Positions 27,791 through 28,972 of a DNA stretch of 64,000 nucleotides are shown here, one piece after another. The notes beneath the pieces were generated by a model that was given only the letters and a program-made list of their open reading frames with translations, did not search any database and was not told the origin of the DNA. Location: positions 16,616,001 to 16,680,000 of the forward strand of contig OX597840.1 of assembly GCA_951406725.2 (NCBI GenBank). Reading direction: 5' to 3'. The position numbers were made by a program, and so were the translations under genes. How positions within the stretch are numbered: the first letter of the stretch is position 1; each line of letters opens with the position of its first letter. The stretch is from Octopus vulgaris (Eukaryota).

Positions 27791-28411
27791 GATCATAATT
27801 TTTCTTCTACAAACAGTGTCTCAAGGCTCGATAATTAGAGGAGGCTCAGTTGGCTGAGTTGACCTCAGCGTTTGACTTCACCATTCTGCAGAACATCTGG
27901 GCTTCCAGACAAATTACCATAAAAGCTAAATAACATATTATCATCTCTAATCTGAAGTCCACTCCTTCTCTATGGAACGGAAACATGGAGAAGGACTGGG
28001 AAAACACTACAAGCGATAACAGTTTACACCAGTCACTGTCTGAGGTGCATTCTTCAAATTCGAGGTAATATTTATTCCTACTTAAACGTGGATGTTCTGT
28101 TAGGATAAGCTATACTGCGGTTGATACCACGAGAGAACAGCTCATATTAGCTTTTGGTGCTAAATGCCCTCTTGTTTGAACTAAAAGCTAATATGAGAGT
28201 TCTCTCATGGTATCTACTACAGTATTGTGTGTTCCAACAGAACATCCATATTGAATTGGAAATAAATATTATCTCTCGGTATTAAATCTGCCTCTGTTTC
28301 TTTAACAAACTAAATGGCTAATCGCAACACCAGCTCCTGATCTGGCACTATCAATTTATATATTGTTACTGGTTGGGTGATGAGTCAGTGCCATCTCTAG
28401 CGGCCCAGCAT

Positions 28412-28458
28412 CCATCATTGACAAGACCAAGAAAGACCGAAATTACGTGATCTGGTGG
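28412..28458 (+). ncRNA. Type I hammerhead motif, U3-A8 variant (copy 1)
   Basis: ccatca-TTGACAA-gacc(aagaaa)gacc-GAAA-ttacgtga-TC-tggtgg; stem II has mismatches. Confidence 0.62.
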
Positions 28459-28745
28459 TCTTGGTGCGAGAGGCAGCGGAGATTTATCTCCCCACTAACG
28501 ATATAAACAGGAGTGCATTTTGCATCAAAAGCCAATATGAGGGTTTCTCTCGTGGTATCTATCACAGTATAGTTTGTACTAACAGAACATCTACGTTTAA
28601 GCGGGGAGTATAAATATTACGTCTCGGTATTAAATCTGCCTCTGTTGCTAATATATATATTTTAACAAGCTCACTGGTTAATCACAACACCAGCACCTGT
28701 CATTAGCGAGGAGATGAGACACTGCTATCTCTAACGGTCGAGTGT

Positions 28746-28792
28746 CCATCATTGACAAGACCAAACGAGGTCGAAATCACGGGATCTGGTGG
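28746..28792 (+). ncRNA. Type I hammerhead motif, U3-A8 variant (copy 2)
   Basis: ccatca-TTGACAA-gacc(aaacga)ggtc-GAAA-tcacggga-TC-tggtgg. Confidence 0.72.
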
Positions 28793-28972
28793 TCTCGGCG
28801 CTGGAGAGACAGGGCTTCGTCGGTGACATCGATCCCAGTATTTTGTCAGTATTATATTTTATTGGCGCCCCCGGAGGAATGAACCGCGAAGCTGACCTTG
28901 ATAAAATTTGAACTAAGATTTTAAAGGCTGCAACGGATTTTGTCAGTCGATTAAGCTAACCCATCACTTCTG

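Follow-up and report, generated by a model that had tools for sequence, protein, structure and literature searches.

The window, a 64,000-nt stretch of the Octopus vulgaris contig OX597840.1 (positions 16,616,001 to 16,680,000 of the forward strand), contains a short insertion of head-to-tail units with type-I hammerhead ribozyme folds (Table 1). Two TTGACAA cores, at 28418 and 28752, are each accompanied by GAAA, and the corresponding ATC triplets end at 28452 and 28786. The two UUGACAA folds of the original prediction, placed 334 nt apart in the same orientation with GAAA and an AUC triplet, were thus borne out. The direct repeat covers 97 nt with 79% identity at a spacing of 334, and the two whole units are about 70% identical to each other. 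The inverted partial copy proposed ahead of the pair was also confirmed. It matches the family majority sequence at 88% over 116 nt, and its outward end (+168) coincides with the first preferred 3′ end of the family. The direct array ends at about +32, which is not a preferred 3′ end, and was therefore probably clipped later.

Table 1. Features of the hammerhead insertion, in window coordinates; unit positions are counted from the cleavage site
Feature	Position	Strand	Remark
Inverted 5′ partial copy	28062..28177	-	covers +53 to +168 of the unit
First unit, 5′-truncated	28175..28452	+	from unit position +67 to predicted cleavage site 1
Hammerhead 1	28412..28458	+	core U3-A8 (28418); stem II broken, other two stems paired
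Unit from cleavage site 1 to site 2 (both predicted)	28453..28786	+	334 nt
Internal copy of the "tail" interval	28609..28665	+	+157-172 and +199-213, both preferred 3′ ends
Hammerhead 2	28746..28792	+	U3-A8 core at 28752; predicted AUC site at 28786
Third-unit remnant	28787..28817	+	+1 to about +32

Both hammerheads have a 6-bp stem I and a near-palindromic stem III. In hammerhead 2, which adds a 4-bp stem II and has a 3-bp stem III, all 13 of 13 stem pairs are intact, the stem II hexaloop ends in A, the stem III loop is near-palindromic and a U occupies position 1.7. Stem II of hammerhead 1 keeps only two of its four pairs (GC, AC, CA, CG), a break that had been overlooked. Deletions near 28700-28706 leave the unit between the predicted cleavage sites about 20 nt short of the family majority length of 354 nt, and when folded as a circle this unit reached a z-score of only -1.7. 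The proposed release of a 334-nt circle is not supported: its length is that of a deletion-shortened unit, the upstream hammerhead has a broken stem II, and the locus copy is probably dead as a circle source. If the RNA folded as a dimer, core 2, which is intact, might in principle serve both sites, and release of the 334-nt circle from this locus would still be unlikely. Reads across the 28786>28453 back-junction, suggested as a test, are not decisive for circles, since head-to-tail genomic arrays yield the identical junction.

An assembly artefact was ruled out, because contigs from one sequencing run (X1) span 28074-28557 with 0 differences. A second run with another organism label (X9) contained the same insertion and flanks at about 3% divergence. 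The left flank (27900-28061, +) is presumably the C-terminal part of an RTE-type LINE reverse transcriptase, judging by likeness of its translation. The insertion adjoins this LINE-like fragment, and no continuation of the fragment was seen beyond the insertion. Just 3′ of the clipped array end, a short repeat at 28868-28926 matches two other sampled loci (L063 and L124) at 76%.

A DNA search of the 2.8-Gb, microsatellite-rich genome of about 30 large contigs recovered a dispersed family with a majority unit of 354 nt. Of the 2,328 candidates, the 40 that were scored yielded at least 98 matches. A 34-nt pattern in which the core was unconstrained had at least 152 exact matches, against 0 for the reversed control. 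In 639 kb of DNA, taken from loci picked because they hold hammerheads, a structural descriptor found 45 distinct matches; two shuffles gave 0. Rfam at E ≤ 10 reported no hammerhead among its 74 matches over 26000-31000, in agreement with the expectation that standard searches miss the family. Altogether, 177 distinct hammerhead copies were collected from 180 loci (165 from the first 150 loci), a sample biased to better-kept copies since it came from best-match and exact-pattern searches.

The family unit is about 355 nt long and contains one type-I hammerhead. Copies are short (median 348 nt) and lie across many contigs; the 28 tandem spacings range from 306 to 360 with a median of 350, and arrays hold up to three consecutive hammerheads and are up to 1,422 nt long. 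The unit is closed, in that the sequence upstream of each hammerhead is the same family unit and the flanks are not common to the 30 loci compared. An open reading frame with reverse transcriptase and GIY-YIG domains was absent from the family at the loci compared. This dispersed, non-coding, head-to-tail architecture supports the suggestion of a family resembling non-LTR retrozymes.

Copies diverge from the majority by about 11% outside CpGs, about 70% of the CpGs have decayed, and the median nearest-neighbour identity is 83% (n = 175). The ideal 34-mer has only five exact matches genome-wide, and a few copy pairs are near-identical (92-98%). The family is old and probably extinct. Contigs of two presumed RNA runs contained 92 and 150 family-like pieces, none at least 99% alike. 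No ADAR-type strand bias was found (A>G 0.040, T>C 0.043). A CA site at unit position +98/+99 reads CG in 23 but TG in only 2 of 146 copies, unlike decaying CpGs.

At the sequence level, hammerhead 2 and the family majority have a Watson-Crick 3-8 pair, GAAA, A15.1-U16.1, an NUH site and G10.1-C11.1. The motif, with a 6-bp helix I, a 4-bp helix II with a hexaloop and a 3-bp palindromic helix III, is the canonical retrozyme form. Among 155 ungapped copies, U1.7, for which a contact has been described (PMC11875169), is present in 142 and the terminal A of loop 2 in 153. All core and stem checks were passed by 43 of the 177 copies, while 112 were defective and 22 gapped. From linkage and minor-allele tables we hand-picked 17 founder-level variants, of which 10 are unpaired, six switch between Watson-Crick and wobble pairs and one breaks a pair; no two-sided compensatory change was among them. 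Folded as a circle, the CpG-restored majority unit reached -144 kcal/mol compared with -91.7 ± 5.4 for 40 shuffles, a z-score of -9.7 that is an upper estimate since CpG restoration raises stability. This predicted circle is 65% paired with a GC content of 0.46, and a long rod extends helix I; the probabilities of stem I and stem III in the majority fold are about 0.19 and 0.02. Judged from predicted RNA, the family's ancestors may have self-cleaved and formed circles.

The CUGANGA core is absent at the locus, where both cores read UUGACAA, the commonest core of the family (65 of 165 copies). C7-G8 forms a CpG, so that part of the family's A8 represents decay after insertion, and U3-A8 founders occur alongside C3-G8 and U3·G8 founders; the original prediction had overlooked both points. 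Control CpGs decayed to about one third each of CG, TG and CA, so that decay alone should give similar numbers of TG and CA. The U3 copies instead have CA in 76 and TG in 18 (CG 12, TA 14), which disfavors decay alone; the C3 copies follow the control pattern, with CG 4, TG 13, CA 8 and TA 3. U3 is associated with A8 and C3 with G8 (Fisher p = 0.0005). A subfamily defined outside the core has TG in 0 of 28 copies. Among the 33 copies that match the loop-AAACAA subfamily pattern genome-wide, 31 have A8 and 28 have U3, with 26 CA versus 1 TG. Accordingly, U3-A8 was a state of founders and is shared by copies elsewhere, as had been proposed. Four of the 33 copies are C3·A8, above the prediction from the background of about 4% T>C.

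A mixture model was fitted to 159 of the 177 copies, with 18 copies with other letters dropped, mutation rates fixed and copies treated as independent. It assigned weights of 0.18 to C3-G8, 0.29 to U3·G8 and 0.53 to U3-A8 founders, with a log-likelihood of -256.9 versus -287.8 for the best two founders, and a C3·A8 class received a weight of 0.00. The view that all A8 is CpG decay was rejected by this fit and by the excess of CA over TG in the U3 copies and the AAACAA subfamily. The two units at the locus belong to the U3-A8-rich subfamily and to an intermediate class, and their core was probably inherited.

Among the 28 tandem pairs, nine have U3 in both units with G8 in at least one and 10 have U3 and A8 only; three have C3 in both units, five disagree at position 3 and one is of another type. 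The C3-G8 weight and CpG retention of the subgroups were 0.36/0.23, 0.09/0.26 and 0.14/0.37, a falling weight with rising retention that is not monotonic and hints that U3-A8 is the later state. A tree was built from the 107 of 177 copies with at least 300 aligned nt after the columns of CpGs and of the core had been masked. On it G8 clusters (23 changes versus 28.8 ± 2.1; 5 of 500 shuffles) and C3 does not (15 versus 16.7 ± 1.0; 59 of 500 shuffles). This lack of C3 clustering and the four C3·A8 copies of the AAACAA pattern count against a stepwise swap, as does a mutation rate at position 3 that may be higher than assumed.

It could also be that U3-A8 is not a selected compensatory pair, and that U3·G8 founders with a weak or dead ribozyme gained A8 by CpG decay or drift, with cleavage dispensable for mobility. 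The CpG at C7-G8 and the even decay of the other CpGs are in keeping with this, as are the roughly 29% of founders that fit U3·G8, the C3·A8 copies in the AAACAA pattern and the description of a Penelope element that inserted in vitro without the need for hammerhead cleavage (PMC11167929). The strong CA bias and the empty C3·A8 class argue against it, and so does an unrelated young family of about 359 nt, which lacks a CpG at this position and has a U3-A8 core (TTGATAA) in 99 of the 100 copies listed. The locus family has also kept its three stems and the other core positions, and we consider the absence of selection unlikely.

The literature on this pair points in two directions. Natural U3-A8 hammerheads are stated to be active in vitro (Perreault 2011; PMC3088659), whereas a pairwise deep mutational scan of one type-III construct describes low activity for all changes in the 3-8 region except for the G3-C8 swap, with U3-A8 not rescuing activity there (PMC9901934). 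The activity of U3-A8 is therefore context-dependent. Among the abstracts and excerpts returned by a search for U3-A8, the pair itself appeared only in PMC4209133, where Cervera (2014) tied about 1,300 minimal U3-A8 motifs to Schistosoma Penelope-like elements (PLEs).

The ends of the insertions carry a distinct footprint. Counted from the cleavage site, the 3′ end lies within +157-172 in 51 of 133 non-redundant insertions and within +199-213 in another 42, so that 93 of 133 fall in two peaks about 40 nt apart, while about 12 would be expected in both windows if ends were uniform. The 5′ ends are ragged. An inverted copy is present at the 5′ end in 35 of 132 insertions and at the 3′ end in none, and 19 of these 35 copies terminate near the same two preferred sites. 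The signal of target-site duplications is weak, with at least 8 nt in 9 of 73 cases compared with 2.2% by chance, and the 3′ flank is 70% AT, slightly above the roughly 63% of the window. The Penelope protein studied by Frangieh et al. has two internal start sites for reverse transcription, separated by the length of the 30-40-nt genomic tail, and it cuts and extends both DNA strands (PMC11167929). Craig et al. described partial PLE tandems in which the 5′ copy is inverted and one end bears a tail (bioRxiv 2021.04.23.441226). Since the family ends and 5′ inversions closely fit these descriptions, a Penelope-like enzyme is the likely mobilizer. Autonomous elements with reverse transcriptase and GIY-YIG domains occur in this genome; among 32 GIY-YIG loci, no partner Penelope sharing sequence with the unit was found, the best match being 19 AT-rich nt.

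We therefore favor, with a probability of roughly 85%, the reading that the locus holds a decayed insertion from an old family of non-coding, head-to-tail units of about 355 nt with one type-I hammerhead fold each, likely a non-LTR retrozyme copied by a Penelope-like reverse transcriptase and GIY-YIG endonuclease, with founder cores of C3-G8, U3·G8 or, most commonly, U3-A8. Founder RNAs with these three cores would have been copied into the genome by the two enzymatic activities of a Penelope-like element, and the inserted copies would have decayed afterwards, including CpG decay at C7-G8.

There is a slim chance that the repeat is instead the pseudo-LTR (pLTR) of an autonomous PLE whose copies appear as partial tandems truncated at the 5′ end. 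PLEs do have tail-like ends and 5′ inversions, Xenopus retrozymes are described as related to pLTRs, and U3-A8 has been published for PLE pLTR hammerheads (PMC4209133). The family nevertheless forms perfect head-to-tail arrays without common upstream sequence, and its 6-bp and 4-bp stems are canonical, unlike the minimal PLE hammerhead. In addition, 0 of the 180 loci match the 781-aa Penelope-type protein of this genome, the one PLE family tested. A satellite or minisatellite spread by DNA-level duplication and unequal crossover would account for the tandem units and the few near-identical pairs, but this reading is largely refuted by the polarized ends, since short dispersed copies with flanks that are not common, fixed 3′ ends and ragged 5′ ends are the pattern of reverse transcription, and we regard it as very improbable.

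The retrozyme reading places the family beside the metazoan non-LTR retrozymes of Cervera and de la Pena 2020 (PMC7229834) and Li, Clavereau, Pollet 2026 (bioRxiv 10.64898/2026.07.22.740005). As described there, these are likewise tandem units of 150-450 nt (mussel 350-390) that each hold a single canonical type-I hammerhead, have a GC content below 50% and a self-paired predicted circle, lack an ORF partner and occur alongside PLEs. The octopus family differs in its mainly U3-A8 core with C3-G8 and U3·G8 founders, in its apparent extinction, and in its two fixed 3′ ends and 5′ inversions, which do not appear in the available retrozyme descriptions. Eight of nine genomic Xenopus retrozyme dimers are described as not cleaving. 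The pLTR hammerheads of the Schistosoma mansoni PLE Cercyon share the core covariation and high copy number and were likewise missed by a C3-G8 descriptor, but they are described as minimal, with a short helix I and a helix II of 7-8 bp, and as mostly single and PLE-tied, while the octopus hammerhead is canonical and lies in a closed non-coding unit (PMC4209133). With Penelope/Poseidon PAc (PMC11167929) and other PLE insertions (bioRxiv 2021.04.23.441226), as far as these are described, the family shares two 3′ ends that make a tail optional, partial tandems, 5′ truncation, an inverted 5′ copy and AT-rich targets, but it has no reverse transcriptase or GIY-YIG frame and a unit of only about 355 nt. 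Covariation of C3-G8 to U3-A8 is also found among the variants of Perreault 2011, where the reported examples are scattered (PMC3088659), in contrast to the polymorphism within one mobile family here.

Retrozymes, their link to Penelope elements and the U3-A8 core variant have all been published before, and the locus itself is a decayed example. The family and the apparent path from C-G through U·G to U-A are new; neither the family nor its mixed founder cores was found by title or abstract in the literature on octopus hammerhead ribozymes, and the squid genome paper lists 235 Hammerhead_1 matches only. In the literature available to us the retrozyme-Penelope link was proposed mainly from co-occurrence and homology, and the family's tail and 5′ inversions add structural evidence that Penelope enzymes copy retrozymes. 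The natural C3-G8, U3·G8 and U3-A8 versions of one ribozyme also form a ready panel for studying the need for cleavage and the swapping of a catalytic pair.

Further hammerheads are present in this genome. The young, retrozyme-like 359-nt family has at least 183 exact matches, and its copies are 94-99% alike to one unit. Its 3′ ends lie at +177 or +234 in 26 of 32 insertions, with 5′ inversions in 21 of 32. Homology to the locus family was rejected (score 27 versus 24.5 ± 4.1 for shuffles), and the young family is a far better substrate for work on cleavage and circles than the locus copy. It lies in TA-microsatellite targets (loci L225, L226, L241 and L213-L244, e.g. C4:127274442-127274832). 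The 781-aa ORF with reverse transcriptase and GIY-YIG domains belongs to a young autonomous Penelope-type family with many intact copies (L201:1245-3587, L202, L157-L165), and the minimal hammerhead downstream of this ORF has a U3-A8 core. C3-G8 hammerhead families are likewise present. We tentatively propose, at somewhat less than even odds, that the locus family is a fossil record of a compensatory C3-G8 to U3·G8 to U3-A8 swap at a catalytic tertiary pair, caught midway in one mobile RNA lineage, in which the wobble intermediate propagated and the C·A route was avoided. On this view, three or more unrelated hammerhead families of the genome, namely the locus family, the young 359-nt family and the young 781-aa Penelope family, would have converged on U3-A8, so that CUGANGA searches miss a major share of its ribozymes.

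Elsewhere in the window, a 160-nt inverted repeat (88%) at 29759-30214 surrounds a C3-G8 hammerhead-like motif at 30028 (+) and looks like another Penelope-type inverted insertion. A hammerhead-like motif at 11074 (-) passes the structural descriptor, while those at 36367 (+) and 55194 (+) are pattern matches only. The ORFs at 42308-43723 (+), 35629-36138 (+) and 58774-59424 (-) resemble what we take to be pieces of non-LTR reverse transcriptases and a mariner-type transposase. A 70-nt hairpin with 83% complementarity and an 11-nt loop lies at 30431-30581.
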